From Vermamoeba vermiformis (taxonomy: Eukaryota), in contig JBEWZL010000202.1 of assembly GCA_045837725.1 (NCBI GenBank), forward strand, positions 310,001 to 374,000: a stretch of DNA of 64,000 nucleotides, read 5' to 3'. Below the pieces are notes generated by a model that was not told the origin of the DNA, made no database searches, and was given only the letters and a program-made list of their open reading frames with translations. Both the position numbers and the translations under genes were made by a program. Shown here piece after piece: positions 1 through 63,700 of this stretch; within the stretch, counting starts at the first letter, position 1, and each line of letters starts with the position of its first letter.

Positions 1-2420
1 CTTGACTTTGGCATCGCCACCGAGACCGACCTTGATATCAGCCTTGGGCTCGTGAACCTTGACGTCAGTGTCAGCCTTGACCTTGGCGTCGCCACCCAAG
101 CCAACCTTGACATCAGCCTTGGGCTCTTTGACTTTCACATCAGCATCGGCCTTGACCTTGGCATCACCACCGAGACCGATCTTAGCATCTCCGCTAGCCT
201 TGACATTAGTGTCACCACCAGCCTTGATCTTGGCATCACCACTGAGGCCAACCTTGACGTCAGCTTTGGGTTCTTTGATTTTCAAGTCAGCATCGGCCTT
301 GATCTTAGCATCGCCATCGGCCTTGACTTTAACATCAGCGTCAGCTTTGATCTTGACGTCGCCTTCAGCCTTGGGTTTCTTGCCACCAATCTTGGGAAGC
401 TTGAACTTCTTCTTGTCTTTGTCTCCACTCGAAGAAGACGATGAAGAGGATGAAGATGATGACGAATCATCGAGGCCGCCACCAATCTTGGGACCCTTAA
501 CTTTGATATCGCCACCAGCCTTGACTTTGGCATCGCCACCGAGCCCAACTTTAACATCAGCCTTGGGTTCGTGAACCTTGACATCAGCATCGGCCTTGAC
601 CTTGACGTCGGCGTCGGTCTTGATCTTGGCATCGCCACCAAGACCAACTTTGACGTCAGCTTTGGGCTCTTTGACTTTCACATCAGCATCGGCCTTGACC
701 TTGGCATCACCACCGAGACCAACCTTGATGTCGGCCTTGGGTTCCTTGACCTTGACGTCGGCATCAGTCTTGACCTTGATGTCAGCATCGGCCTTGACTT
801 TAACGTCAGCGTCGGCTTTGATCTTGACTTCGCCTTCAGCTTTGGGTTTCTTGCCACCAATCTTGGGAAGCTTGAACTTCTTCTTATCTTTGTCTCCACT
901 CGAAGAAGACGATGAGGACGAAGATGATGATGAGGAGTCGTCGAGACCACCAATCTTGGGACCCTTGACTTTGAGGCTGCCATCTCCCTTGATCTTGGCA
1001 TCGCCACCCAAACCAACCTTGACGTCAGCTTTGGGTTCTTTGACTTTCACATCAGCATCGGCCTTGACCTTGGCATCGCCACCGAGACCAACCCTGATGT
1101 CGGCCTTGGGTTCCTTGACCTTGATGTCGGCGTCGGCCTTGACTTTTACGTCAGCGTCAGCTTTGACCTTAGCGTCGCCACCCAAGCCAACTTTAATGTC
1201 AGCTTTAGGTTCCTTGACCTTGACGTCGGCATCGGCCTTGACCTTGGCATCACCACCCAAACCAACCTTGACGTCAGCCTTGGGTTCGTGAACCTTGACG
1301 TCAGCATCGGCCTTGACTTTGGCATCGCCGCCTAAGCCAACCTTGATGTCGCCACCGGCCTTGATCTTGGCGTCGCCACCCAAGCCAACCTTGACGTCGG
1401 CTTTGGGCTCTTTGACTTTCACATCAGCGTCAGCCTTGACCTTAGCATCGCCACCCAAGCCAACCTTGACGTCTGCTTTGGGCTCTTTGACTTTCACGTC
1501 GCCACCAAGACCAACCTTAACGTCAGCCTTGGGCTCTTTGACCTTGACGTCGGCATCGGCCTTGACCTTGGCATCGCCGCCTAAGCCAACCTTGATGTCG
1601 CCACCGGCCTTGATCTTGGCATCGCCTGAAGCTTTGGCTTTCTTGTCTTTGTCGCTTGATGAAGACGATGAGGAAGAGGATGAGGAAGATGATGAAGACG
1701 AAGAGTCCGAACGATCACGACCACCTCCAAGACCAACTTTTACTTTAGGGGCCTTTACTTTGACGTCAGCGTCAGCTTTGACCTTGGCATCACCACCGAG
1801 ACCGACCTTGACATCGGCTTTAGGCTCGTGAACCTTGACGTCAGCATCGGCCTTGACTTTGGCATCGCCACCGAGACCAACCTTGATGTCGCCGCCAGTC
1901 TTGATCTTGGCATCGCCACCAAGACCGACCTTAATGTCAGCCTTGGGCTCGTGAACCTTGACGTCAGCATCGGCCTTGACCTTGGCATCACCACCCAAAC
2001 CAACCTTACTGTCAGCCTTGGGTTCGTGAACCTTGACGTCAGCGTCGGCCTTGACTTTGGCATCGCCACCGAGACCAACTTTGACGTCGCCGCCAGTCTT
2101 GATGTTTGCATCTCCACCCAAACCAACTTTAACGTCAGCCTTGGGTTCGTGAACTTTAACTTCGGCAGTAGCGTTGACCTTAGCATCGCCACCCAAGCCA
2201 GCATGTACGTTAGCGTCTGTCTTGGCTTTAACATCGGCATTGACATTGATGTCGCCACCGGCTTTAATTTTGGCATCGCCGCCTAAGCCAACCTTGACGT
2301 CTGCTTTGGGCTCTTTGACCTTGACGTCAGCATCGGCCTTGACTTTGGCATCGCCGCCTAAGCCAACCTTGATGTCGCCACCGGCCTTGATCTTGGCATC
2401 GCCTGAAGCTTTGGCTTTTT
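1..2420. repeat. Coding tandem repeat: 75-bp (25 aa) and 48-bp (16 aa) units with higher-order duplications
   Basis: Units of the type cttgacgtcagcatcggccttgac recur throughout. The block tgccaccaatcttgggaagcttgaacttc occurs at 381 and 852; the block atcgcctgaagctttggc occurs at 1621 and 2398. Confidence 0.95.
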
Positions 2421-2625
2421 TGCCTTTGCTGTCGCTTGATGAAGACGATGATGAAGAGGACGAGGAAGATGATGAAGATGAAGAATCTGAACGATCACGA
2501 CCACCTCCAAGACCAATCTTTACGTTCGCATCCGCATCGGCTTTCATGTCTGTTTTAATTGAAGTGTTGGCGTGTACTTGGGCATTAGTGTTGGCATCGG
2601 CGTGGATTTTAGCATCGACGTCAAC
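1..2625 (-). CDS. Giant low-complexity repeat protein (large exon, runs off window start); AHNAK/periaxin-like composition
   Basis: The minus-strand frame after the acceptor TTCTAG (intron ends 2626) reads VDVDAKIHADAN...GGDAKVKADADVKVKEPKADVKVGL repeats with poly-Ser blocks, and the same frame is seen at base 1. It is absent from the ORF track, presumably because there is no stop in the window. Smaller upstream exons lie at about 2680-3310; the start was not resolved. Confidence 0.85.
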
Positions 2626-37992: not shown

Positions 37993-39071
37993 ATGCGAGG
38001 TCGGTCGCCAATATCAACCCGCCTTGTTGGTGGTGTTATTGTTGGAGTGGTTCTGTTGTTTATTTATTCGCAGATGCTGTCTGATCAGTTGCCTCCAACG
38101 GCAAACTCACCTACTAATAATTTCGTTGGTAATAATAGTAGAATAGTAGTCTCCAAGGGAACATGACTAATAATCTTCTCGTACTTTAGATAAACCCATG
38201 CCGGAGTCAGAAACTAAATCTGAAGATTGCGAAGGACGACGTACCCAATTACCAATGGCTATTCAAATTAAAAATTTTTGGGGCAATAACAACGTGAATA
38301 AGCCAAAGCCAAGCTCACCAACCAGAGAGATTCTCATCAAAAAGCTCCATCACGGCGTTGATCCGTTTACAAACTTTCCGGTCGAGGATAACCCATTTAA
38401 AACACCTACTATGCCTACACATTTCTCAACCGAGGAGGTCAAGCGGATTTTAAATCTTTACAATCTTACCCCAAAATTTATTGTTGAAGTCGGCAGTTAT
38501 GTGGGCGGATCTGCTATTAGAATCGTGAAGGCTTTGAAAGATCTATCATTAAACGACGTGCCTGTTTTATGCGTTGGTAAGTAAATCATGAATCGTGTAA
38601 TTTTTAAATTTAATGTTTTTTTGGATGTGATCAGATACTTGGCTCGGAACTGCTACTCAATGGCTATGGAAAGATCCCAATTTCGATTTAGAATATGGCC
38701 GCCCAAGTCTTTATAACCAATTTATGGTCAACGTTATCAATAACAAAGCCCATAGTCACATTTTGCCGTTGGTTGCTACCGGCGCTACTGGAGCACATCT
38801 GCTCAAAGCGCAACAATGGCAAGTCGATTTCCTCTACCTAGATGCCGCTCATGAAGCTATCGAAACATTCCGAGAGGTGTGCCTGTATTTTGAAGTATTG
38901 GCCGTGAACGGAGTTATGGCTGGAGACGATTACAATTCATTCCCTGCAGTGAAGCACGACGTGGATCTGTTTGTGCGACTATCTGGTGCTGAGCTCCAAG
39001 TTAATGGCGCGACGTGGCACATCGTCAAAACACCCGCGATTAAGGACTTTACTTGTTGGGACTGGATTTAG
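37993..39071 (+). CDS. Type II membrane class I SAM-dependent methyltransferase (Methyltransf_24-like)
   Basis: N-terminal TM segment; IVEVGSYVGGSA, LCVDTWLG (spliced), VDFLYLDAAH and GVMAGDDY. Confidence 0.85.
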
Positions 39072-43228: not shown

Positions 43229-43895
43229 GGTGATGATGTGAAGTAGAGTGTAGGGTTTTGAGTTTTAAAAATACTCGGCCGAGTTACCGTTTTATATTTG
43301 TTTTAATCTTACATTTTTCTGATATCAAACATTTCCGAATCCAGTCAATTCAGAATTTATACAGCGGGATACGCGCAATATCAAGAAAAAAATAGGATTA
43401 TGAACGAGAGAGAATCTCTTAGTGGTTAAGCAACCCAAGATGAGTTCCTACTTGTACCGTAAAAAGTTTGTACTGCTGGCAGATCTAAGTAATTTTAGAA
43501 TCCTTTTACATTCATATTACGCAGCAATCTCATCTGAATTAGATTTCGGAAAGTTCTTTTTGACTCCAACATTGCACGTTGAAATTCATTCACGCCGGTT
43601 GAACAACCTCGGATTGTGCACTCACAAATTGTGTGAAAGTGAGGCTACGACAACGCATGAAAAAATAGTTCTCGGGGTATATTAATACACTGCGTAAGTC
43701 GATAAAGGTTTCTAAAGCATGGTGGCGTTTGCAAACTCTGGCGCAATCAAGATGTCGACCCAAATCACTTATTTCAAATAATACATGTATTAAAAATAAT
43801 ATATAGATATTAGTAATTCGGTGTTTGATCATTTTGGGCTTGCCTTTATTAAAATTCCAAATTTAATAAAATTAATATTTTTATTTCAAGACCAA

Positions 43896-45041
43896 ATGGG
43901 AGACGAAGAAGTAATGATTATGATGGACATTGGCTCCAGAAATATTAAAGCTGGATTTTGTGGCGATGATGCACCTAAGACCGTCTTTTCCAACATTATC
44001 AGCGAACCATTATCAAAGACTAGTATGCCAAATGTGGCGGGAAAAGATCGTTATGTCGGATCTGAAGCGCAAGAAAAACGTGGATTGTTAGCATTAAGAT
44101 ACCCGATCCAACGAGGCGAAGTTACAGATTGGGACGATCTCTCTGCAGTCTTACACCATGCGACATATAATGAACTGCGAGTTAGTAACCCATTTGGCTT
44201 TGTGTTTCCAGAGCCTGTTTTCAGCTCAAGAGTTTACCGAGAAAAGCTGGCCCAGATTTGCTTTGAAGAATTCGATGCACTTAATTTTTATGTCAGCCCC
44301 GTTGGTATATTGAGTATGATGGCATCTGGAAGAACATCCGGAATCGTATTGGATATTGGCGAAGGATTAACTCAAGTGTTTTCAATGATGGACGGATTCA
44401 TTCTTCGATCTGGATGTGCTCGAGTCAATAACGTGGCTGGAGCGGATCTCAACGAGTACTTGTTGAAGTTGATATCAGTATATGGCAACGAGCATAAGAT
44501 GATCAATGCTGAAAATCGCGATCTCGCACGGGAGATTAAAGAGAAAATGTGTTACGTAGCCGCGTCAAGTGATGAAGTCGCGCAACTCAACAAGCAAGCC
44601 TTGGAACAAAAAATGCACAAAAGCTATGATTTATCGGATGGGTCGTCGGTCTCACTAGTCAACGAGCAATGGCTATGTGCTGAAGCGTTATTCAATCCTA
44701 AAAAATACCTCGAAAGAGACGTGCCTGGCGTGCATCAACTGATCGTCAACGCGATTGAATCATGCGCTATTGACAACAGAAAATGGCTGTATCAAAATAT
44801 AATATTAGCTGGTGGCACAACACTCTTGCCTAACTTCTCAACACGACTTCAAAGCGAAATTGAAAAGTTAGCGCCGCATGCACCAGTCAAAGTTGTAGTT
44901 CCACCTGAACGATTTTTACTTCCGTGGATTGGCGGCTCTATTGTAGGATCAATGGGTCATAATCGGTATTTCATGACTAAGCGTAGTTACGATGAACATG
45001 GACCTTCTGCGGTACATCCGACGGTTTACGAAACAATTTAA
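43896..45041 (+). CDS. Divergent actin / actin-related protein, intronless
   Basis: DIGSRNIKAGFCGDDAP, YVGSEAQEKRG, YPIQRG, ASGRTSGIVLDIGEG, REIKEKMCYVA, NIILAGGTT and PPER...WIGGSI. Confidence 0.9.
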   Translation: MGDEEVMIMMDIGSRNIKAGFCGDDAPKTVFSNIISEPLSKTSMPNVAGKDRYVGSEAQEKRGLLALRYPIQRGEVTDWDDLSAVLHHATYNELRVSNPFGFVFPEPVFSSRVYREKLAQICFEEFDALNFYVSPVGILSMMASGRTSGIVLDIGEGLTQVFSMMDGFILRSGCARVNNVAGADLNEYLLKLISVYGNEHKMINAENRDLAREIKEKMCYVAASSDEVAQLNKQALEQKMHKSYDLSDGSSVSLVNEQWLCAEALFNPKKYLERDVPGVHQLIVNAIESCAIDNRKWLYQNIILAGGTTLLPNFSTRLQSEIEKLAPHAPVKVVVPPERFLLPWIGGSIVGSMGHNRYFMTKRSYDEHGPSAVHPTVYETI

Positions 45042-50955: not shown

Positions 50956-52432
50956 TTAATTTAGAGATCTGTCGATCACTGGACTGGTTTCTCTTCCGGA
51001 TATTCGGTCATATTGGTCGTGAGTGTTGCACCTCACAGCTAACGTCTTAATAAAGTTCACTAATTTCGTCTTTGCGTCTCCTCCCTTTGGCCGTTTGTCT
51101 TGCTCGCCTATCACCTTTAAACAAAACTTGGCCACAAATTTCTTCTTGTCGTCTGATTGCATGTTCGTAGCAATTTCCTCGATCTTTTCTTTGAATTCAT
51201 CCATATTTAGATCCATATTCCGTAGCAGTATTTGTCCACAAACAACGCCAAAGCTAAACAGATCGGTCGAGATCGAGTACTTTTTCTCTGTTACGACTTC
51301 GTGTGGCGTCCAAATGTTAGGATGAATTACTTTGTCGCTTGTATCATATGCGTATCCGTCTTCTTTATCGAGCAATTTCGCCAAACCAAAATCTCCGAGC
51401 TTCAAGATCGTTTTCGCATCTTGTTTTAGCAGTAGTATGTTTTGCGGCTTAATGTCGCAATGTAATACCAATGGTTTTTGGTTCGAGGTATCAAATAGAT
51501 ACGCAAGTGCGCTGCCTAGTTGCAAAATATAATCGTAAACTTCTGCATCTGATAGTGGACTGCTTGCATCTTTTAGTTTAGCTGCTAACGCTATAAAAAA
51601 TATGTCAAAAATCGAATATATCTTGTGCCTATCACTTACGGCAATCACATAGCTCAAGAGGCAATCCCGCGGATTTGCTTTCCGCATTTAGGTACGGCGA
51701 GCTTACAACTTTCAAAATATTGATGTGATTTAATTGAGTCAATATTCTTAATTCTTCTCTCGCATCTGCGCTGTTAGAAGTCATCTTAAGCGCCCACTTC
51801 TTCTGTCCATTTTGCTTCACAACTACAACCACGGAGCCTGAACCACGTCCAAGCACATCAGTCTCGTTAATATCATCGTAATCTTTCTGCAACAGAGTTT
51901 GTTGCTCTTCGGGCCTTTTAGCAAGCGAATCTGTCACGTTGCGCTTTTTGATGGTTGCGAAGATAATTAATCCAATTGCCAAAAAAGCTACAATTACACC
52001 GCCTAACACATAATATAGTATATTATTGTTTTCAGTAGGAGGAGCAGCTGACGGATTTCTCTTTGCTATTGGTGAAGCTGTTGGATTCGGGTTTTCTACC
52101 ACGGGGGCGTTGCATAAATCTTCTTTGCAACATAAAGGATTATTGTACGTTGGAGGAGTCAATTTTGTACAGAGAGAGGCCTGTAAAACAGTGTAGGCTG
52201 TTACGTAAGTCAAATTTTTGGGATTAATCTGCTTGCAAACGGGATCAATGTTGCCGGGCCAGCAAGGAAAGTCGTATCGTGCACAAACTTGGTCTCCTCC
52301 TGGAGGTACTTCTGCTTCCCGAACTCCAAAAGCTTGGCTGTCTCCGGTGTAACATTTCAAAGCCAAGCTGTATTGCGAAGCCAGTAGTAATAATAAATAG
52401 AATACTATCGGCACTTGCAATGCGGATTTCAT
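50956..52432 (-). CDS. Receptor-like protein kinase with LU/three-finger-like ectodomain, non-RD kinase (2 exons)
   Basis: Signal peptide; LKCY...CCKEDLCN ectodomain; TM ILYYVLGGVIVAFLAIGLIIFATI; kinase motifs GRGSGS, ALK, HCDIKPQN, DFG, WTPHE and DLFSFG. Intron 51591-51639. Confidence 0.85.
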
Positions 52433-52494: not shown

Positions 52495-54205
52495 ATGACC
52501 ACAAGCCAAAAGATTTTGTTGCTAATTATTTTGGCACTGTCAATCGCTACAGTATGCAGTCAACGTTGTAAGAATAGGATCATTGTATTAAATCCTCTAT
52601 TGGAATCCTCTATTGCAATACTCAATTAATTCTTTTTTATCAGATGCCGCAATCTATTTTAGCTCGAAACTAGACTGCAGAAACAAGGCGGATAGATTTT
52701 TAATTGAAGCAACCGATGAAAATTGCAAAAATTTTGCCTGTAAGCTTAATGGCCCTCTTCAAAATGTTTCTTCATCCGAGCAATATATCAGCTGGGCTTG
52801 CAACGCGAGCCTCGCAGATTTTGACCAAATGCTGCTAGAACAGGGATCTGGAAGAAATATTTCAATTACATGGTACTACACTACTTACACGACTTGTGGC
52901 GACGGATGGACTTACCACATTGACGCTACTGCCGTGGATTCGTGCGAAGGCATTGAAGAATTTACGTGTAAAGATAACAAATCGACAAGGAAGTGCATAT
53001 ACGTTGATCCTAATAGCCCTAAGTCAGAAATTCCGTCAAGTCAACCAGATCAGATTCAAACACCTGAATCAGCCATTATACATGATGATAACCAATTGAC
53101 TACGTTTGAAAAAATTATGATTGGAATTTCAATTGGTGGATGGGCTACAGCAGTTTTATTTATTGCGTTGTTCATTCGGGGTCGGAATAATCGCAGTCGC
53201 GGGTATGACCCGTTAGAACAAGAAGAAGAAGCAAAACATAGCCAAAACGAACATACATTGATACTGGACGATCACAATAATATGAAACAGCCAGAAAACG
53301 TTGCAGCAAATGCAAAAATATTTAGAATTTCTGAAACCGAGGTCACAATCACCGCAAAGCGACTTGGCACGGGACAATGTTCCGAAGTATTTGAAGGAGT
53401 ATGGCGCCAAAGGCCGGTCGCAGTGAAAAAACCCAAAGCTATGGACTCGGCATTACTATCTGAATTGGCAATTCATCGCGAGATAGATCAGCATCCGAAT
53501 ATTGTAGAAATATATGGCTATTTTAAAAAAGATGGCCGCATTTATCTAGTAGTGGAGTTGTGCGACAGTCAAAGTAAGAAAACCGAATCTGGATCAGCAA
53601 ATTTTAACCTAAGTTCAGACTTGGAAAGCACAATACTGCGAGGAGATCTGTCGGCAGCGGAAAAATTCAGTGTTGTCGCGGGTATCGCAGAGGGCATGGC
53701 CCATCTCCATAGGAAGTCAATAGTCCACCGAGATCTGAAGCCAAACAACATTTTACTTACGAAGAAAGGCCTATTTATGGTCCCTAAAATAGCTGACTTT
53801 GACTACTCTCGCTTCCTCGCCTCGCAAACTAGTGCTCAAAGCTTTTCAACTCCTCAAATTAGTTACGCTGCACCAGAGGCTATCACGCAAGGAGAATTCA
53901 GCTTCCAATCAGATGTTTGGTCGTACGGTGCAACAATCTTCTTTTTGCTCACAAAACAACCTCCGTTTGGTCAGCCAACTGGCTTGCAGAAAAAACGAAT
54001 GCAGAAGCAAGCTAAAATTAACTTTGAATTGCTAGAAAAGCTCCCTAAAGATCCGTTCACTCAGCTGCTAGTCGAGATTGTTATGAAGTGCTTGAAAGAC
54101 GAGCCTAACGAGAGACCGAATTTTGATCAGATCTGCTCTCAGTACAAAAAGTTCTTTAATGACTTCTTGCCATGGAATAACAATCAAAATAATAATAACT
54201 TGTAA
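52495..54205 (+). CDS. Receptor-like (TKL-type) protein kinase with Cys-rich ectodomain (2 exons)
   Basis: Signal peptide MTTSQKILLLIILALSIATVCS; Cys-rich ectodomain; TM IMIGISIGGWATAVLFIALFI; kinase motifs GTGQCSEV, VAVK, HRDLKPNN, DFD, YAAPE and SDVWSYG. Confidence 0.9.
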
Positions 54206-54270: not shown

Positions 54271-57200
54271 CTAATCTTCTATAAGCATCTGGTGCGACTC
54301 AACTACTCTCGATCTCTTGCGCTTTCGTCCGTACAGATCATCGTCGTCAGGAAAGACGCAATTATCAATCTCCACAGTTTTGTTGGCCACGTAGCCAGTC
54401 TTGAGGTCAGGGAAACATGCAGCGAGGGCTACTAACGGCACTTGACAAGCTTCAGGTGCGTCTTTAGGATAGAACGGATCTTCGCCCTTGCCTCGGAAAT
54501 AGGGATGTAAGAAGTAGATTAGCAAGAGTAGGGGGGCAGTTCTACCACGACGATCAGGCTGGACATCTTCAACTTCAGTGTTTTCAGTGTCTTTCGTCAC
54601 AATCCAATCAGGCAATGGCGTGTTCTTATCAGCAATAGCATCAATGTACTGGTGCTTGTCACGACTGGATTGTTGAGACTTGGCACCGAGAAGTTGATCG
54701 AACTCAGTATCGATGACGGGATTTCTTCTTCGTCTATGAAGACCTAGTCTATTTTGAAGGATAAAGCGGCTATTCTCGTCGTTGAACTCTTCTATTTCTT
54801 CATAAGGAGCTTCGCTACGCGTTGGAATGCCCACATTCACTTTCAGGTCCAAGTTTTGCTCTTCGCAAATGAGCTGATAGATCTTCAATTGTCGGAGCAA
54901 GTCACCAGTGTTGGGTGTGCCAATTAACTCGATGGTCTTCAAGTATTCGATGACTCTGTCAAATGGCACGTCCATCACAACATCGCCGGCACGATGGTGT
55001 TGTACTAAGGCCGAGAATTCCTTCCAAAAGTTCACTGTAGCTTCGAGCACGTCACGTGACGCGTCGTGTTCCATTGCAGGAGTCTTGAGCTCGAAGAATC
55101 GGTTGACTTTGACTTCCTCCACATTATTCTTGACTTTGTTTGTCAGCACTCCGGTCGACGGCTCTTGAAGCACAGCTGAACGATGACCAGGTCTCCAATT
55201 ATTCAGCGCCATTTGTCTGAATACGTTACGGAGTTTGTGTTCACTTTGCACAGCCTCAGTGAACACTTGAAGTTGTCGCTCTTGCATGAACACTCGCACC
55301 AAGTCGATGTATCCGTTACGCCATCCGAACCATCTATCGCACATTAGAACACGTTGCCATATTACAGGCTATGATGTATGACTTACCGTTGATGTTGAAT
55401 GGTAGTGTCAGCAACTGATTTCCTCGAAGCACGAGTGTACCATGAGACAGTCAGACCTTCAACTGTCAGGCCACGAGAAAGCATATTGCCACCAATGACG
55501 ATCAAGAAGCGAGGCACTGGCTTGCTTTTAGCTTTACGATCCCCTTCCACTGCTGAGTAGTCGAATGTGCGCATGTTTGTGATGGACTCGCCTCCGCGGC
55601 ACATGGCCGTCTTGATGTGAGTTTCAGTCAGAACTTTCTTGATCTCGTGCAATGAATCTGCCATTGGCGCATCAGGCGAAAGATCGCGCCACACTTCATT
55701 GAGATACTCTGCGTTGTTGACGGCGTTTAAGTGGTTGTTGATGTCCACTACTATGATCGACCAAGCGACAGTCACAACGGCGTGCATGAGCTCAATGAAG
55801 TCTTGATTGAGAGACGAGTGCACCATGCCACTGTGGAACAGAGGCTTTGATGGCGGTGCTTCTTCAAGGGCCTTGGAGAGCTTGTAGAACTTGCCCTTGT
55901 AGTGCAGAATGTGGACGTTCTCGTTCGTGTTGCCAGTCTCGCTCGTGACCGTGTTGAACTTGCCGTTATCAAGAGCGATGTAGAGAACAATACGGTAAGC
56001 AATGAGTTCTTCGATCTTGGCGAGAATGATGGGCTGCTTGAAGTTTGGCTTGTACAACATCTCGGCGTAGTTCGTGTTGAAGTTGTTGAACAGGTTGCGA
56101 AGCTCTTTAGGACTGAGCGAGTAATAGGACTCTTTGCTGTTGTCGAGTTTGTCTTGAAGTCCGTCACGCAAGTCATTCAATGCCTCTTCGTTCTGAGCAA
56201 AAAAACTTAACGGATCGCGAGTGCCTTCTTGTCCCGCAACGATTGCCTATAAAAAGACAAGTCAGCAACGAACTTCCGCGTTCAAATTAAGCAACTAATT
56301 TCTTACATCAAGGTCGTGAGTCTTGCGAGTTCGTTGCAATCGAATGGCTCCAGTGAACACATAGTACGCCAAAAACTTCTTCATGGACTCCGTGGCAGCC
56401 CTTTCATTGACCAACTCTTCCAAAAACTCTCGTTGGAGGCGCGTCAGGCCACTTTTTAGTTCACCAGGTTGGATGTAGTTCTTCAGATCCAAGTTCGGAT
56501 AATCTTCAAACGGGATCAACTTGATGATTCTATTCTTCAATGCTTCGTTCAAGTACATTTGTGAGCCGAGGTAAAGTCCTTTTTGCGTCGAAAGTTCCCA
56601 GAAGAAGTGAGGGAAGAACTCATCGTTGGAGTTGTTCAACACATTCGCTTGAGGAGTGGCAGAGTAACCGACGTAGTGACAGACATCGAGACCGCTCTTG
56701 GACCACAAATGACGAAGACGACGCATGCGCTCTGGGATACCTCTCTTCTCTTCTAACTGGCGCTGAGTGGCAGCAACAGAAGCGTCGTCACATTCGTCGT
56801 CGATGATGAGTGCAGGGCCTGCTAAGAACTCAGCGAGCTTTTCCTTGATCTCGTGTCTGCGTTGAAAGATCTCCGAGTTGTTCTTGCTCGCTCTGTTCCA
56901 AGGAGAGTTTTCAAAGTCGCCTTCAATGAACGAGACGAAGCTTTCAAGTGACTTGGGAACCTTCTTGAGCACGGCAAAGAGCTTGTTCGACTGCAGAAGC
57001 TCATCCACGTCAATGTTCTTGATGTTCTGCACGTCTTCGTCACCCTTCGTGAGCCAGAACATGTAATCGTTGGGCTCCATGTCACCGTTCAAGTCAATGA
57101 GAGTCTCGCCCAGGTCGGACCAAGCACTTTCAGCGTACTCTTCTTCGTTGTCAGTCTCGTAGCTTTCGTCGGTCGAGTCATCACACGTAGAAACACGCTT

Positions 57201-57848
57201 TCTCTTGCGACTAAACAAACGGTGAGTACTATACCACTATTAGAATCGTAGAGGACTTACTCAGGAGTGACGTTTCTGCTCGTTGATGGTGAAGTATTGA
57301 GTCTGTTATTAAGGTTATTAGAGTTAATGGTTGTGTTAAATAGTGGCACTTACTCATCACCGTGCATGGATTCTTGAGTACGAGCCTGGGTCTGGTTGCG
57401 CAGAATGTTGATGCGACCACTCAGTGACATCACCGTCTTGAAGCCCAAGTCGAAGGCAAGAGCTGTGAGCACGGTCATTGACGTGGTTTTGCCGGACTGG
57501 ACCTCGCCGTAGACAAGTCCGTTCGTTGCTTTTGTAGGTGCACACCGCGCGAGGATGTTGAGGGCATTGATAGTAACCAATTGGAACTGATCTGCGGTCA
57601 GAGAAGTACTTCTGGACTTGACACGTTCGAAGTAGGTCCAGTTTGATTTGCGAGCCTTGCACAACAGATCCCGATTCTCTCGCACGCGCTTCAGGAGCAA
57701 AGCCCAATCAAGGTTATCCCACTTTGCAGCAAATGTTTCAATAGGGGCATGAAAGATTTCGTTGATGGTTTCGTTCTGAATGGCTGCGCAAAACGTTAGA
57801 TGTGATCGGGTCACTATCAATATCGAAGGACTTACTTTCGATTTGCAT
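54271..57848 (-). CDS. SF2 helicase-Z1 domain protein, copy 1 (6 exons)
   Basis: GLVYGEVQSGKT, LSGRINILRNQTQ, LIIDDECDDASV, YVGYSATPQAN, YLG and VIGGNMLSRGLTVEGLTVSWYTR...DTTIQHQRWFGWR. Introns 57784-57835, 57303-57353, 57211-57260, 56247-56306 and 55334-55386 all splice in frame. Confidence 0.88.
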
Positions 57849-57933
57849 TGTTATTTGTCGTGTTATTCTTGTCGATTCTAATGCAAATGAAGAGTTTCTA
57901 TTCGCTTTTATGACAAAACCGCGATATTTTGGA

Positions 57934-57970
57934 TCACAAAGTAGAAACTGAGCGAATCACAAAGTTGCTC
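57934..57970 (-). promoter_or_regulatory. Shared upstream element, copy B
   Basis: On the + strand: TCACA (57934) - N18 - TCACAAAGTTGCTC (57957). A TATA-like CATAAAAG lies on the minus strand at ~57905-57912. Confidence 0.6.
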
Positions 57971-58497
57971 CTGCCTGAAAATAGGAACGAGCATCACTTC
58001 GCAGATACCAACGAAGCATGGTACCCTCTGTATTACATTAATTTTCGCTGTGTAAGCAAAAGAATCAGAAAAACCGATCGAGGTGCAGATCTGTGACCCG
58101 AGGCACCTAAAATTAAATTAATCAATAAATATAATAATAACCACTGGTTAATTATAAATAAATGTTCTGCTCGCTTTGTATTAATTTAATAGAAAGCCAG
58201 GGTAAAATTTATTTAATTAAATGGCCTATGAAATCGACTTTATTGGGGATGCACTATCTAAATTTAATATCACAGTACTATTCTACATCGGAAGGACCAA
58301 AGTTACCTCGCACTTTTGGATGCGCAGCAGAGTTTACACGAGTTTCGACTCTCGGATAAGTTACTTAATCGCGAATTCAAATACACGTCATAATATGTGG
58401 TCCATTGCATTGTCTTTATAATCGAAACGTAAAACAAAATCAAATTTATTCGGATCAAGGCAAAATATTTTGACAAAACACAAGCACTGTTGCCATT

Positions 58498-61400
58498 TTA
58501 AGCCGAGTAATCTACATCCATCGATTCTTCTTGATTGCCCTCAGTCTTGGCTCGTTTTCGCTGTCGTTCTTCTGCGTCTCCGTCATTATTCGTGGGATAG
58601 ATGTAGTCGCTACTGCGCACAGTTTTGTTGGCCACGTAACCAGTCTTGATGTTAGGGAAGCAGCCAGCGAGGGCTACTAAAGGAAACTTGCCCGCTTCAG
58701 GTGCGTCCTTGTCGTAGTAATCCTCGCCTTTGGCTTGGAAGCGAGGATGCAAGAAGTAAATTAGCACTAGCGCTGGGGCATCTGAGCCACGATAAGCAGG
58801 TTGTTTGCCATTGGTGTCCTTTGTAATTATCCAATCAGGCAGCGAGCTCTTCTCATCGACTACAGCATCGATGTACTGGTGCTTGTCACGGGCTGACGCT
58901 TGGGACTTGCCACCAAGCAGCTGTTTGAACTCGCTAGTAATGACTGGATTTCGCTTTCTTTTGTGCAAGCCGAGTCTATTCTCCAATATGAATCGACTGT
59001 TTACGTCGGTGAACTCATCCAAGTCCTCTTGCGGAATTCTGTCGCCAAGCGTTGGGACTGCTATGTTCACGATCGGCTCCACGTTCTTTTTTTCGCAAAG
59101 GTGCATGAAGACTTTGATTTGTTTGAGCAAGTCCAAAACATCGGGCATGCCAACTAAGGCGACTTGTTCTAAGAACGTGATGACTTCGTCTATCGGCACG
59201 TTCTTGACTACCTTGCCAGCTCTGTGTTGCACGGGGCTAGACAATTTCCTCCAAAATCCCAATGTTGCTTCGAGCACAGCACGTGAGGCCTCTACTTCTA
59301 GCGCAGGTGTTCTGAGCTCCAATGTGCTGAGTCTAACATCCTCAACGTTGTTCTTGCCTTTGTTCGTCAGCACTCCTTTCGAAGGCTCTTGAAGCACGGC
59401 TGAACGGCGATCAGGTCTCCAATTATGTAGCGCTGTCTGTCTGAATATATCACGGAGGCTTTGCTCACTTTTAACTGCGTCAGTGAACACCTGCACGTGT
59501 CGCTTTTGCATGAACACGCGTACGAGGTCAAAGTAACCATTGCGCCATCCGAACCATCTATCACACATTAGAACACGTTGCCATATTATAGGCTATAATG
59601 TATGACTTACCGTTGGTGCTGGAGGGTAGTATCAGCAACTATCTTTTTTGCCGCACGAGTGTACCATGACACAGTCAGACCTTCAATCGTAAGGCCACGA
59701 GAGAGCATGTTGCCACCAATGACGATCAAGAAGCGAGGCACTGGCTTGCTTTTAGATTTACTACCTCCTTCAACTGCAGAGTAATCAAAGGTTCGCATGT
59801 TCATTATCGACTCTCCTCCACGACACATGGCTGTCTTAATCTTCGTCTCCGCCAACACCTTCTCGATGTCAAGTTTTGAGTTAGCCATCGGGTCCTCCGA
59901 AAGATCGCGCCACACTTCGTCAAGGTACTCGTAAGTGCTGACTCCGCTCAACTGATTTTTGATGTCTTCTTCAACTTTGAACCATGCAATACGAACTGCT
60001 TCGTAAAGGTATTCGATAAAGTCTTGCAAGTGAGACACGTGCACCATTGCGCTGTGGTACAGAGGCCTTGTGGGTTTGGGTTCGTCAAGAGGGCCATTCA
60101 ATCGATAGAACTTGCCCTTGTAGTGCAGAATGTAGGCGTTCTCCTTTGTGTTGCCAGTCTCGCTCGTGACAGTGTTGAACTTGCCGTTATCAAGAGCAAT
60201 GTAGAGAACAACACGATAAGCAATGAGTTCTTCAAGCTTCGCTAGGACGATTCGCTGCTTGAAACTTGGTTCGCTGAACAACTTGGGGTAATTCGTGCTG
60301 AAATTGGTCATAAATTCTACCAATTGATCGAAATTCAGTGAATGATAGTACTCGTGGCTTTTGGTCAGTACTTGTCGAAACACGTTTCGTAGGTTATTTA
60401 ACTCGTCTTCATTGTTTGCGAAGAAGCTTAACGGCTCCCGATCGCCGTCCTGTCCAGCAATAATCGCCTGCAAGGCACGTGAGAAATGGTCGTGCAATGG
60501 ATTAGCACTTACGTCAATGTCATGTGTCGGGCTCGTACGTTGAATCCTAATCGCCCCCGTGAACACATAGTACGCCAAAAACTTGCGCATCGACGGTGTG
60601 GTTTTGTCATCACTATTCAGTGATTGCAAGAACTCCCTTTGAATGGCATTCTGGCTCTTCTTGTCCCCTCCAGCATGCCCCGTTATGACATCGGACTCAT
60701 CCAAGTTCGGATAATCTTCGTACGGGATCAACTTGATGACACGATTCTTCAATTCTTCGTCCAAGTACATTTGTGAACCGAGATAAAGTCCTTTTTGCGT
60801 CGATAGTTCCCAGAAGAAGTGCGGGAAGAACTCGTCGTTGGAGTTGTTCAACACATTCGCTTGAGGAGTAGCGGAGTAACCGACGTAGTGACAGACATTG
60901 GTCCCATTCTTTGGCCATATATTGCGGATACGGCACATTCGTTTTGGGATGCCCTTGGCATTTTCCAACTGACGTGGAGTGGCAGCAACAGAAGCGTCAT
61001 CACACTCGTCGTCGATGATGAGTGCAGGGCCTGACAGGAACTCAGCAAGTTTCTTCTTAATCTCTCTTCTGCGTTGATAGATCTCCGGATTGCTCTTGCA
61101 CGCCCTCTTCCACGGTGAATTCTTGAAGTCTCCCTCGATGAACGAGACGAAGCTTTCGAGTGACTTGGGAACCTTCTTGAGCACAGCGAAGAGCTTCGTT
61201 GAGTGCAAAAGCTCATCCACGTCAATGTCTTTGACATTCTGCACGTCTTTGTCATCCGCAGTCAGCCAATACATGTGATCGTCAGAATCCAGACTTTCAT
61301 TCAAGTCAACGAAAGTCTCGCCAAGATCAGGCCAAGTGCTGTCCGGGTACCCTTCTTCTTCGCTCTCCGTTTCGTCGCTGAAGTAGATTAAATCTTCCGA

Positions 61401-62045
61401 CGATGACCGCTTTCTCTTGCGTCTAAATGGTATTGGTTAAAGAAACCAAGTCAAATAAACCACTTTTTGACTTACGTAGGAGTGACATTTCTGCTCGTCG
61501 GTGGCGAAAAGGGTCTATTGTGACATTAGTTAAAGAATTATGGCTCTAAACAGCGCTTACTCTTCAGCCATAGATTGTTGGGAGCGGTACTGGGTCTGGT
61601 TACGCAGAATGTTGATGCGACCGCTGACTAGCACAACAGTCTTGAAGCCCAAGTCGAAGGCAAGAGCTGCCAACACGATCATTGACGTGGTTTTGCCGGA
61701 CTGGACCTCGCCATATACAAGACCGTTCGTGGCGGATTCAGGAACGAAACGCGCGAGAATGTTGAGGGCGTTGATCGTAACCAATTGGAACTGGTCTGCA
61801 GTCAGAGACGTGTTTCGTGCTTTTACTCGCTCAAAGTAGGTCCACTTGGATTTGACGAACTGATCCGTCTTCCTCTCTCGCACATGTCTGAGATATAAAT
61901 TCCAGTCGTGCGGATCCTGGTCCCACTTGGCAGCGAGGTTTTCAATAGGAGCGTGAAAGATCTCGTTTATCATTTCATTTTGGATTTCTGCAATTTAAAG
62001 TGTCAGATCGAGCTTCGCCCAAGAATGCCATAACTTACTCTCCAT
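58498..62045 (-). CDS. SF2 helicase-Z1 domain protein, copy 2 (6 exons)
   Basis: Same motif series as copy 1. Introns at homologous positions: 61988-62038, 61515-61560, 61423-61475, 60468-60512 and 59558-59610. Confidence 0.88.
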
Positions 62046-62173: not shown

Positions 62174-62878
62174 TTCCAGGAACAAGGCCACACGTGACGA
62201 CTGACCAATCAAAACAGAGTGCCTCCCGCCCAATTCTGAAGTTTGGAAAAGGAGCTGGCTGACGGCCCCACGATGTCCTCAAACTTGACAATAAGATAGA
62301 TATCTTTGCCTCTGTTGCGCACATTTCATAAAATGCCTGTAACAGTTCAAATCAGCATAATGATAAATGGATTGCCTCGAAGAATGAGAAGCAAAGAGCA
62401 CAAGCAAAGAGCAACTAAAATCATTAAAAAATAAATATTATGAATGTTTATTTATGATTTATTATTATTAATAATACATTATCGACGATAATATCTTTGA
62501 TATAATTATTAATTTAGAAGCATCTATTTCGTGGCTGAGCGTGTGGTAAACGAAAAATCCGTCCGTTGTCCATTATTAATTAAATCATAATAATAATACG
62601 CCTAAATATTCTGCTTACCTCTGTTAAATTACTTGTAATATTTACAACGCAGCATTGTAGTCATCGGCAGCACTTTTTCGATCACAAATCTGAAAATACA
62701 AGAACCCTATTTTTGAGAGAAGAAGGATATGCGTTCTGTGATATTTCTTAATTTATGGGACTAGCATCGGGACGAAATATAAATTGAAAAAGCCTCGTTG
62801 TCATTTTATTTTTTAAGACATGCAACAAGTAGGCAGCAAACCAACTAACGAAGAATATAAGTACAAGTCAGCCTTAAG

Positions 62879-63700
62879 ATGAACCGCGATACTGTTTTGT
62901 ATATGATCAAGAACTTTGTAGACATCAAATCACTTGTTACGGGTTGGATGTCAACGTGCAAGAAATTACGGCGAAAGCTTTTAGAACCAAGCTTCTACAT
63001 CAATGAAAAATTCGTCGAATTAAGAAAAAAATATCCTGTCGTTGATCTATATTTAAAAAGAGACAAAACAAAGCAACTCATCTTCAACCATCCGTTTAAA
63101 TTTTTGTTGGAATGCGAAGAGCTGGAAACAAACACCATTAACAACGCGTGCGAAATGTTAAGACGATTATTTCCGGCCTATGAACATGGCAGCTTGGCAG
63201 GAGTCGACTATTTGCTTCAGACCGCAGAAAGCCAAAAGTTCAAAATGGATGTCAGCGACAACTATGGCCTATTAGTTCCACCTCAATACGCGCAATTTTT
63301 CAGCTTATGTCGCGAATCAAACATCCATCAAGGCGGCCTCCAGTTCATCTTCCCCTCATTTCAACCCTATTGCTGGCGCTACCAAGTATGCGAAGGCCTA
63401 ATGAAATTCGCTAACTGGTCCGATTGCGGATCTGACGGTGCATCGTACTTCTTCTTAATATGCGATATTCATAGCCCTTGGTACGGTCGTCTCATCTACT
63501 ATACGTACCGCCGCGACGGCAATTTCCACGTGCTACCACAACACTGGTCGTTCAATGACTTTTTGCAGCTCCTCGTTGACAACGAACAAGCCACGAAAAT
63601 GCACGTGTTTGGCGCGGTGAAGGTAGAGACCGGCGATGATACTCGAGACATTATTCAACAACCAATCGGACACTTTTGGGAAGAACCATGGCACTTTTAA
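62879..63700 (+). CDS. F-box-like + SMI1/KNR4 (SUKH)-like protein, single exon
   Basis: N-terminal DTVLYMIKNFVDIKSLV...TCKKLR is F-box-like. YGLLVPPQYAQFF, DGASYFFLICD...YGRLIYY and SFNDFL resemble SUKH motifs. Confidence 0.6.
   Translation: MNRDTVLYMIKNFVDIKSLVTGWMSTCKKLRRKLLEPSFYINEKFVELRKKYPVVDLYLKRDKTKQLIFNHPFKFLLECEELETNTINNACEMLRRLFPAYEHGSLAGVDYLLQTAESQKFKMDVSDNYGLLVPPQYAQFFSLCRESNIHQGGLQFIFPSFQPYCWRYQVCEGLMKFANWSDCGSDGASYFFLICDIHSPWYGRLIYYTYRRDGNFHVLPQHWSFNDFLQLLVDNEQATKMHVFGAVKVETGDDTRDIIQQPIGHFWEEPWHF

Follow-up and report, generated by a model that had tools for sequence, protein, structure and literature searches.

The closest described counterparts of the proteins reported here are motors of bacterial restriction systems. 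The H subunit of CglI is described, in the corresponding publication (PMC5861437), as a DEAD-Z1 translocase of double-stranded DNA (dsDNA) whose Z1 and C-terminal domains bind DNA, and the same text places the H/H motif of DEAD-Z1 motors at the opening of a helical insertion of the C-core. A second publication (PMC2292703) gives DThhQXuRhFG as the signature of a 'third type' of MORC-associated helicase. In this work we analyzed 64,000 nucleotides (nt) of DNA from Vermamoeba vermiformis (assembly GCA_045837725.1, contig JBEWZL010000202.1, positions 310,001 to 374,000 of the forward strand), referred to as the window in the following, in which two neighbouring genes, named copy A and copy B, are predicted to encode such motors of helicase superfamily 2 (SF2). 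An earlier note on this DNA had connected the pair to the bacterial Mza system, which is composed of a MutL/MORC-type ATPase, a PD-(D/E)xK protein (DUF4420) and AIPR. Our analysis points instead to a bacterial DEAD-Z1 motor of restriction type that was transferred to a eukaryote, gained introns and further additions, was duplicated and would act as a dsDNA translocase, probably in the nucleus; to this reading as a whole we assign a probability of about 0.7.

In both copies the Z1 part is immediately preceded by an N-core of the P-loop type, which contains Walker A and Walker B. The Pfam family Z1 (PF10593, cut-off 25 bits) matched two exon-sized open reading frames (ORFs) of each copy, with 65.5 and 37.5 bits for B and 62.9 and 40.4 bits for A, and the remaining three of the seven exon ORFs scanned gave no Pfam match. 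The Z1 match splits at profile position 165/166, which is exactly the position of intron 5, and the uninterrupted full-length relative P0159 (1113 amino acids (aa), 65–68% identical to A and B) reached 117.2 bits against the same profile. The motifs GEVQSGKT, LRNQTQ, IIDDECDD, YVGYSATPQ, GGNMLSRGLT(V/I)EGLTVS and DTT(I/L)QHQRWFGWR are present in both copies, and the H/H motif, FHSGMVH in A and YHSAMVH in B, aligns with the family consensus HxMMxH. The stretches DTTIQHQRWFG (A) and DTTLQHQRWFG (B), formed only once intron 5 has been removed, fit the signature of the MORC-associated helicases given above. From the 41 columns that are at least 90% conserved in a family alignment of 100 rows A and B keep all 41, and two homologues from Planoprotostelium and Protostelium nocturnum, described below, keep 40. 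By their Z1 matches and motifs A and B are thus assigned to the DEAD-Z1 SF2 motors. The earlier note had given the region as 54271–62045, had listed the motif series from GxVQSGKT to DTxxQxxRWFG and had named Z1 as the family, and all three statements are correct for both copies.

H.CglI has the same general layout, with an N-core RecA half (GxxQSGKT, DDExD) and a Z1 half as C-core including the H/H motif and a motif VI of the Q..RWFG type. It differs from A and B in its size, with 632 aa compared to about 1100 aa. A and B additionally have a helical extension at the N-terminus, an acidic loop carrying basic clusters and an insert of approximately 137 aa, and their C-terminal part has around twice the length. 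Furthermore, no PLD/B3 nuclease partner as in CglI is encoded near A and B, and the two genes are eukaryotic and contain introns.

Copies A and B are tandem neighbours on the minus strand, the region 54271–62045 having the stop codon of A at one end and the ATG of B at the other (Table 1). Stop-to-stop ORFs on the minus strand of this region form two parallel series of 166/313/287/365 aa and 145/609/364 aa, the 609-aa ORF of B resulting from its intron 4 being in frame and free of stops. The introns of A have 52, 51, 50, 60 and 53 nt and those of B 51, 46, 53, 45 and 53 nt, all of them GT-AG, with the phases 1, 2, 2, 0 and 2 at homologous codons of both genes, and their removal leads to single open frames of 1103 and 1099 codons. 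The five introns at identical positions that restore the frame, as proposed in the earlier note, were therefore found in both copies. Each copy has a micro-exon 3 of 42 nt (A) or 39 nt (B). B intron 4 is read through in prokaryote-style gene calls, and the public entry P0001 (594 aa, 96–98% identical to B) keeps the 15 residues encoded by it.

Evidence for splicing came from contigs of run X5, a run with an organism code other than that of the best-matching DNA runs. These contigs are 95–100% identical to the window and lack introns 1, 3 and 4 of A and introns 1, 4 and 5 of B (6/10 introns), the joints lying at the exact predicted bases with CT..AC ends on the plus strand; being intron-less, they indicate transcripts. 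The other four introns (A2, A5, B2 and B3) are supported by homology. P0159 reads through all five junction sites without interruption, relatives of the P0159 type have full-length uninterrupted frames of 1113–1115 aa, and the 90% cluster of P0159 also holds exon-sized ORFs (147, 317 and 354 aa) from contigs of up to 595 kb, whose ends coincide with these exon borders. A and B are expressed and spliced genes of a eukaryote. That they are not bacterial contamination, as already stated in the earlier note, is confirmed by the introns, the spliced X5 contigs and the eukaryotic neighbours.

The proteins A and B share 67.2% identity over 1087 aligned residues. The synonymous divergence (dS) between the copies is approximately 1.03 and thereby near saturation, the nonsynonymous divergence (dN) is 0.224 and dN/dS is 0.217, ranging from 0.09 to 0.41 over the eleven windows of roughly 100 codons into which the alignment was divided, the final one being shorter. 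These values point to an old duplication and to purifying selection on both copies, in agreement with the earlier note, which had described the pair as duplicated and kept intact; the tandem arrangement and the 41/41 conserved residues are in line with this as well. P0159 is about equally distant from A and B, P0007 is 81% identical to P0159 and P0008, an exon-5-sized piece, shows around 51–53% identity. By sequence, the three entries represent further lineages of the family, either in related organisms or in the same genome.

Intron 5 is identical between A and B in 50 of 53 nt, compared to 55–67% identity for introns 1–4, 73–79% for the five exons longer than 13 nt and 46% for exon 1 (13 nt in A, 7 nt in B). 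As the codons flanking intron 5 differ synonymously, a long conversion tract is unlikely. If intron 5 were retained, a TAA stop would directly follow ...QHQR, and an in-frame ATG inside the intron precedes WFGWR. A hairpin joining the splice sites of intron 5 has weak support in B (z value -2.1) and none in A (+0.3), and the three differences are not compensatory.

To place A and B within the family, the 609-aa ORF of B was compared with 1.84 billion representatives using HMMER, resulting in 1494 matches at E ≤ 1e-3, 22 at E ≤ 1e-10 and two at E ≤ 1e-30, the last two being exon-sized pieces of close relatives. PRP75576.1 from Planoprotostelium fungivorum (1099 aa, annotated as 'endonuclease, partial') was among the next-best matches, and a profile search added EP01117_P010467 from Protostelium nocturnum (1122 aa, a EukProt transcript). 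Both are Z1 proteins from Amoebozoa that carry basic clusters and, at the corresponding site, a long insert, but they are just about 29–31% identical to A, B and P0159. The eukaryotic range among the 1.84 billion representatives comprises the window lineage, these two Protosteliida proteins and the unplaced fragment P0010. The ESM Atlas look-alike clusters listed were 75–100% bacterial among members with a taxon record. No relative was found in five viral-contig scans (queries P0009, P0012, alignment A2, P0159 and P0164), a tblastn search with P0159 against phage records led to six weak partial matches, each covering at most 33% of the query, and two metagenome-contig scans with the B exon ORF and P0159 gave no locus. 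We found no paper describing a eukaryotic Z1 or DEAD-Z1 protein, the Protosteliida ones included, although the supplementary alignment of 807 homologues belonging to PMC5861437 could list eukaryotic members. The remark of the earlier note that it was not aware of any characterized eukaryotic members thus agrees with the papers found, but the family is not unique to this organism, as the uncharacterized homologues in Planoprotostelium fungivorum and Protostelium nocturnum show.

P0010 is a fragment of 176 aa from a JGI metagenome contig of 6576 nt that covers Walker B to motif III and is 36–39% identical to the window proteins. It has blocks in common with the window clade and with the Protosteliida proteins, and a break of 11 residues within its YVGY..TATPQ motif could be a retained intron. 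P0010 may therefore represent a further eukaryotic lineage with the Z1 family.

Two phylogenetic trees were reconstructed from a taxon sample drawn from our own searches. The FastTree phylogeny contains 261 rows, namely A, B and every protein of 750 aa or more (259) among the 311 Z1-family proteins retrieved. The IQ-TREE phylogeny (LG+C20 with posterior mean site frequencies, quick search) contains 64 rows, consisting of A, B, 10 named relatives, three locus translations, 20 rows of the nearest bacterial clade and 29 outgroup rows, with 12 rows flagged as long branches in FastTree and six near-duplicates being excluded. The window clade and the two Protosteliida proteins are united in one clade by both trees, with a support of 99 (Shimodaira–Hasegawa-like approximate likelihood-ratio test in IQ-TREE). 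This eukaryotic clade is sister to a clade of 30 rows including the Flavobacteriales, Aquirufa and Marinimicrobia loci in IQ-TREE (joined at 99) and to the corresponding 67 rows in FastTree (joined at 96). If either eukaryotic group is dropped (LG+G4), the other one joins at the same node with a support of 97.

The sister clade is made up of the P0009 group, the P0012 group and a group of Bacteroidota/Marinimicrobia type. P0009 and P0012, the sole near relatives with a measured identity, are about 29% identical to the window proteins. The large sister group is called bacterial because of the 11 loci from a genome-contig scan, among them a Flavobacteriales metagenome-assembled genome (MAG; 72% to the query), Aquirufa avitistagni (52%) and single-cell genomes of Marinimicrobia and Bacteroidetes (37%). 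Z1 proteins of the Bacteroidota/Marinimicrobia type (about 1000 aa) are nearest to A and B in the trees and have the same layout, with an N-terminal extension, a DEAD half, a Z1 half and a long C-terminal domain with 'PxLxxFYxL' and 'P...GG/GY' blocks. They differ in their operon setting and in having no introns, and P0179, the one member checked, has no long insert. In these unrooted trees with long branches the eukaryotic sequences are hence nested in a family that is mostly bacterial, and their range among eukaryotes is narrow. Taken together, a bacterial origin by horizontal transfer, followed by domestication and duplication, is well supported; the direction of the transfer and its being a single event we infer.

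In the sister-clade loci of the Flavobacteriales MAG (L001), Aquirufa avitistagni (L002) and a Marinimicrobia single-cell genome (L003) the Z1 gene is part of a conserved block. Besides Z1 this block encodes, on one side, a C5 cytosine methylase, a type II nuclease of the MutH-like kind and a small protein of about 130 aa and, on the other, a DUF4420 PD-(D/E)xK protein and an approximately 815-aa protein, in which a cold-shock domain (CSD) is accompanied by a weak DndB-like match. All three loci showed this ORF layout, and the families were assigned in L001 and L003. The protein of about 130 aa (L001 6033–6422, L002 9595–9990, L003 9594–9989) is encoded directly upstream of Z1, overlapping or abutting it, and shows no Pfam or PADLOC family. 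Among the scanned neighbours in L001 and L003 no MORC and no AIPR were seen. The ancestry in restriction-like operons proposed in the earlier note consequently stands in so far as bacterial operon Z1 genes are nearest in the phylogeny, but not for the MORC and AIPR partners.

The connection to Mza itself is not supported. MzaC is also a Z1-containing SF2 protein, and the PADLOC profile MzaC (PDLC02205) matched P0159 with 87.3 bits and single exons with 24.9–34.3 bits. These matches are partial, covering two stretches of the 952-position profile, and they are weaker than those of the PADLOC profile Helicase_II on P0159 (109.5 bits), P0011 and P0164. The MutL/MORC-type and AIPR partners of Mza were seen neither in the window nor in the two scanned sister loci, where the partners are instead the C5 methylase, the MutH-like nuclease, DUF4420 and the CSD/DndB-like protein. 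A literature search on MzaC brought up only unrelated papers. In the MANTIS preprint, also considered as a source, the CglI paper appears merely in the reference list.

Hidden Markov models of the five operon partners gave no match at E ≤ 10 in the six-frame translation of the window, and a Pfam scan of 26 of the 34 ORFs with at least 140 aa outside the sense strand of A and B revealed no operon-partner family, MORC or AIPR. That A and B are kept without operon partners, as claimed in the earlier note, accordingly applies to the 64-kb window.

Compared to their bacterial relatives A and B show several additions. The basic cluster RKRKR at the start of exon 4, after micro-exon 3, is present in both copies and at the same site in P0159, a second RKRKR is found near the C-terminus of A, and other basic clusters occur in B and in the Protosteliida proteins. 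Altogether such clusters were found in 5/5 eukaryotic proteins and in 0/2 proteins of the P0009 and P0012 groups, and the one bacterial-clade protein checked (P0179) has a single KRPKK. We read RKRKR as a putative nuclear-import signal. The acidic segment around the first RKRKR is predicted to be disordered in a structural model of P0159 (residues 148–198, predicted local distance difference test (pLDDT) <50). The insert of about 137 aa is located before the H/H motif, with TGAIR and H/H lying 152 aa apart in the window clade, 175 aa apart in P0164 from P. nocturnum and 17–47 aa apart in the three insert-less relatives P0179 (47 aa), P0009 and P0012. The insert core is among the best-conserved stretches between A and B and was modelled with low confidence. 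Neither Pfam (best E 0.014, sub-threshold) nor the ESM Atlas (look-alikes not exceeding 0.76) offered a family for the insert.

The AlphaFold2 model of P0159 (mean pLDDT 68.9, predicted template modelling score 0.67) shows two confident RecA-like halves. A Foldseek search of this model against the PDB resulted in the helicases RIG-I, MDA5, LGP2, Dicer and DRH-1 as first matches, followed by Chd1 and HsdR of EcoR124I, with E values from 2.7e-7 to 1e-4, template modelling (TM) scores of 0.19–0.24 of the query (top TM 0.22/0.34) and 9–12% identity. RIG-I-like receptors and the helicase domain of Dicer have dual RecA folds with an inserted domain in common with the model, but the likeness is at the level of the SF2 fold only. 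We thus regard the resemblance in the model as that of a generic SF2 fold with an inserted domain and not as family membership. The model of the C-terminal exon of B (pLDDT 72.1) had no significant match in the PDB. The C-terminal domain of H.CglI (6F1S) came at rank 2 for the C-terminal model, with a TM of 0.53 of the target, the highest among the matches listed, an E value of 0.46 and a probability of 0.38, and this resemblance between model and structure is taken as a lead only. At the sequence level, neither two exon ORFs nor the family profile retrieved a significant match from the PDB.

Based on these results we propose that a DEAD-Z1 SF2 motor gene of bacterial restriction type would have been acquired by horizontal transfer and would later have gained spliceosomal introns, basic clusters resembling nuclear-import signals, the acidic loop and the insert, and would have been duplicated. 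In its product two RecA-like halves, the DEAD one carrying Walker A and B and the Z1 one carrying the H/H motif and motifs V and VI, would precede the long C-terminal domain that the bacterial relatives also have. The protein would bind DNA via its Z1 and C-terminal parts and then move along dsDNA using ATP, acting in the nucleus, with no genes for the methylase and nuclease partners of the bacterial systems next to its own gene. Since the catalytic and DNA-contact motifs are intact and under selection, DNA binding and translocation are most likely, and in analogy to H.CglI an ATP-driven dsDNA translocase activity is the most likely one for both A and B. The basic clusters suggest a nuclear action, and the proteins are probably located in the nucleus.

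Several points weigh against this proposal. Run X5 is only guessed to be RNA, its intron-less contigs being what points to transcripts, and three raw RNA runs labelled with the species of the best-matching DNA run gave 0 reads on the window, which was rated as no test. The trees are unrooted and the stems of the eukaryotic groups are long (1.38 and 0.72), and both the union of these groups and their shared attachment could result from long-branch attraction. The hosts of the P0009 and P0012 groups are not known. The inserts of the two eukaryotic groups show no detectable homology (hhalign probability 1.4%, best BLASTP E 0.047) and therefore do not independently argue for acquisition in one event. 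A simple pattern rather than a validated predictor was used to find the basic clusters, the translocase activity is derived from conserved motifs only, and the partner genes could be located elsewhere in the genome, beyond the 64-kb window.

What the motor might be used for can be narrowed down to two possibilities, which are about equally likely on present evidence and each of which we regard as possible but well short of an even chance. A and B could have kept a defence role, in line with the idea of the earlier note. As sensors or effectors in the nucleus or cytoplasm they would respond to foreign DNA, for instance that of giant viruses, virophages, plasmids or transposons, and would be assisted by a eukaryotic nuclease or by a MORC-type ATPase whose gene lies elsewhere. 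With regard to giant viruses, named as possible targets in the earlier note, the results speak neither for nor against such a role. The expansion to at least three lineages (A, B and the P0159 type, 65–68% identical) plus the more distant P0008 piece would fit such a role, as expansion is common in immune gene families, and the best look-alikes in the PDB are the helicases of RIG-I, MDA5 and Dicer, with low scores (E 2.7e-7, TM 0.22/0.34). The ancestry in restriction-like operons, seen in the L001 and L003 loci and consistent with PMC2292703, points in the same direction. However, there is no partner gene within the window, dN/dS is uniformly low without any region suggesting an arms race, the viral-contig scans contained no relatives and the phage records just the six weak matches, and the RIG-I-like resemblance is explained by a generic SF2 fold with an insertion. 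Alternatively, the motor could have been repurposed for nuclear housekeeping such as chromatin remodelling, DNA repair or recombination, with its link to defence being lost. The strong and even purifying selection, the retention of all catalytic residues and the absence of the bacterial partners from the window would be expected for such a function, as would the eukaryote-specific acidic loop, basic clusters and insert, the core of the latter being highly conserved between the paralogues. In contrast, core housekeeping factors are usually widespread, whereas the distribution among the 1.84 billion representatives is very patchy, and several diverged paralogues are maintained.

That the gene pair is the cargo of a mobile element or of an integrated virus appears improbable. 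The guanine plus cytosine (G+C) content of 0.45–0.47 at 54–62 kb is higher than the 0.35–0.43 found mostly elsewhere in the window, and restriction-type genes are mobile in bacteria according to PMC2292703, but the raised G+C also fits long coding exons, and a dS of about 1 between the copies argues for a long residence. Moreover, the region of 50–64 kb has no inverted repeats and no flanking direct repeats except the two copies themselves, the 26 scanned ORFs of at least 140 aa include no integrase-like or capsid-like family, and none of the five viral-contig scans contained a relative. Bacterial contamination, a mis-assembly or a decaying pair of pseudogenes, suggested at most by the prokaryote-style single-exon gene calls in public collections (P0001, P0007 and P0008), would be hard to reconcile with canonical intron borders, introns that are gone in transcript-like contigs, eukaryotic genes on the same 64-kb stretch, intact frames, a dN/dS of 0.22 and 41/41 conserved residues, and we consider the chance for it to be negligible. 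A more far-reaching and rather speculative version of the preferred horizontal-transfer reading, to which we give less credit than to either of the two functional roles above, would be a single capture of a bacterial, methylation-dependent restriction translocase by amoeboid or other free-living eukaryotes, which equipped it with nuclear-import signals and the insert and expanded it into nuclear genome-defence motors. Such a motor would load on foreign or unmodified DNA of giant viruses, virophages or transposons, translocate along it and hand it over to a host nuclease or a MORC-type ATPase. If true, this would be a eukaryotic analogue of ATP-dependent restriction.

Table 1: Positions of the two DEAD-Z1 genes and of their features in the 64-kb window.
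Feature	Position in the window	Strand	Remarks
Copy A, gene	54271..57848	-	6 exons, 1103 aa, stop TAG
Copy A, exons	57848-57836, 57783-57354, 57302-57261, 57210-56307, 56246-55387, 55333-54271	-	
Copy B, gene	58498..62045	-	6 exons, 1099 aa, stop TAA
Copy B, exons	62045-62039, 61987-61561, 61514-61476, 61422-60513, 60467-59611, 59557-58498	-	
Intron 4 of copy B	60468..60512	-	45 nt, phase 0, stop-free; removed in an X5 contig
Intron 5 of copy A	55334..55386	-	53 nt; equivalent in B 59558-59610
Walker A GEVQSGKT	A 57485..57508; B 61689-61712	-	G, Q, S, G, K and T columns near-invariant in 100-row alignment
Walker B IIDDECDD	A 56784..56807; B 60996-61019	-	motif search and family alignment
Z1 signature/motif VI DTTIQHQR, then WFGWR	A 55318..55409; B 59542-59633	-	split by intron 5
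RKRKR cluster, start of exon 4, after micro-exon 3	A 57195..57209; B 61407-61421	-	motif search
Second RKRKR of copy A, near C-terminus	54313-54327	-	motif search
Insert of ~137 aa before H/H motif	A 55845..56315 (residues 461-597, span including intron 4); B 60066-60521	-	spacing comparison

The neighbours of A and B are eukaryotic and include an actin-family gene, a PEX6 domain, three ORFs with a kinase domain, ankyrin repeats and a Helicase_C ORF; tRNA genes were not found in the 64-kb window. The actin-family ORF at 43800–45041 (+) is a single exon encoding 413 aa, which are 34–44% identical to named actins and have environmental proteins with 70–71% identity as closest relatives, and by these identities it is assigned as a divergent actin-like gene. 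The kinase-domain ORFs adjoin copy A (50956–51687 (-), 51632–52432 (-) and 52592–54205 (+)), the last one encoding 537 aa with an N-terminal non-kinase part and an asparagine-rich tail. An open frame of more than 875 aa at 1–2625 (-) runs off the end of the window and is proline/glutamine-rich and repeat-like; it gave Cornifin and SR-25 profile matches without a single significant stretch and lies in the sole 2-kb bin with 53% G+C. On the other side, an ORF of 279 aa (62861–63700 (+)), which is divergent to copy B and separated from its start by about 815 nt, shows no Pfam family at E ≤ 10. The ORF at 38631–39071 (+) gave a sub-threshold match to Methyltransf_24, a class I methyltransferase and not a DNA-methylase family (E 4e-4, 21.7 bits compared to a cut-off of 26.3). 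Small shares of sequence in water and aquifer metagenome runs are no evidence of the habitat.

In summary, several parts of eukaryotic immunity, such as cGAS-STING, viperin, gasdermins and MORC ATPases, have been traced to bacterial defence systems, and the two DEAD-Z1 genes of V. vermiformis offer an unusually clean case, in which spliced contigs confirm introns, the intact genes are under purifying selection, the bacterial sister clade has a defined operon and eukaryotic additions are visible. Furthermore, they flag a small eukaryotic family that includes the Protosteliida proteins annotated only as 'endonuclease', and they provide a testable example for the fate of a restriction-system motor that has been cut loose from its methylase and nuclease.

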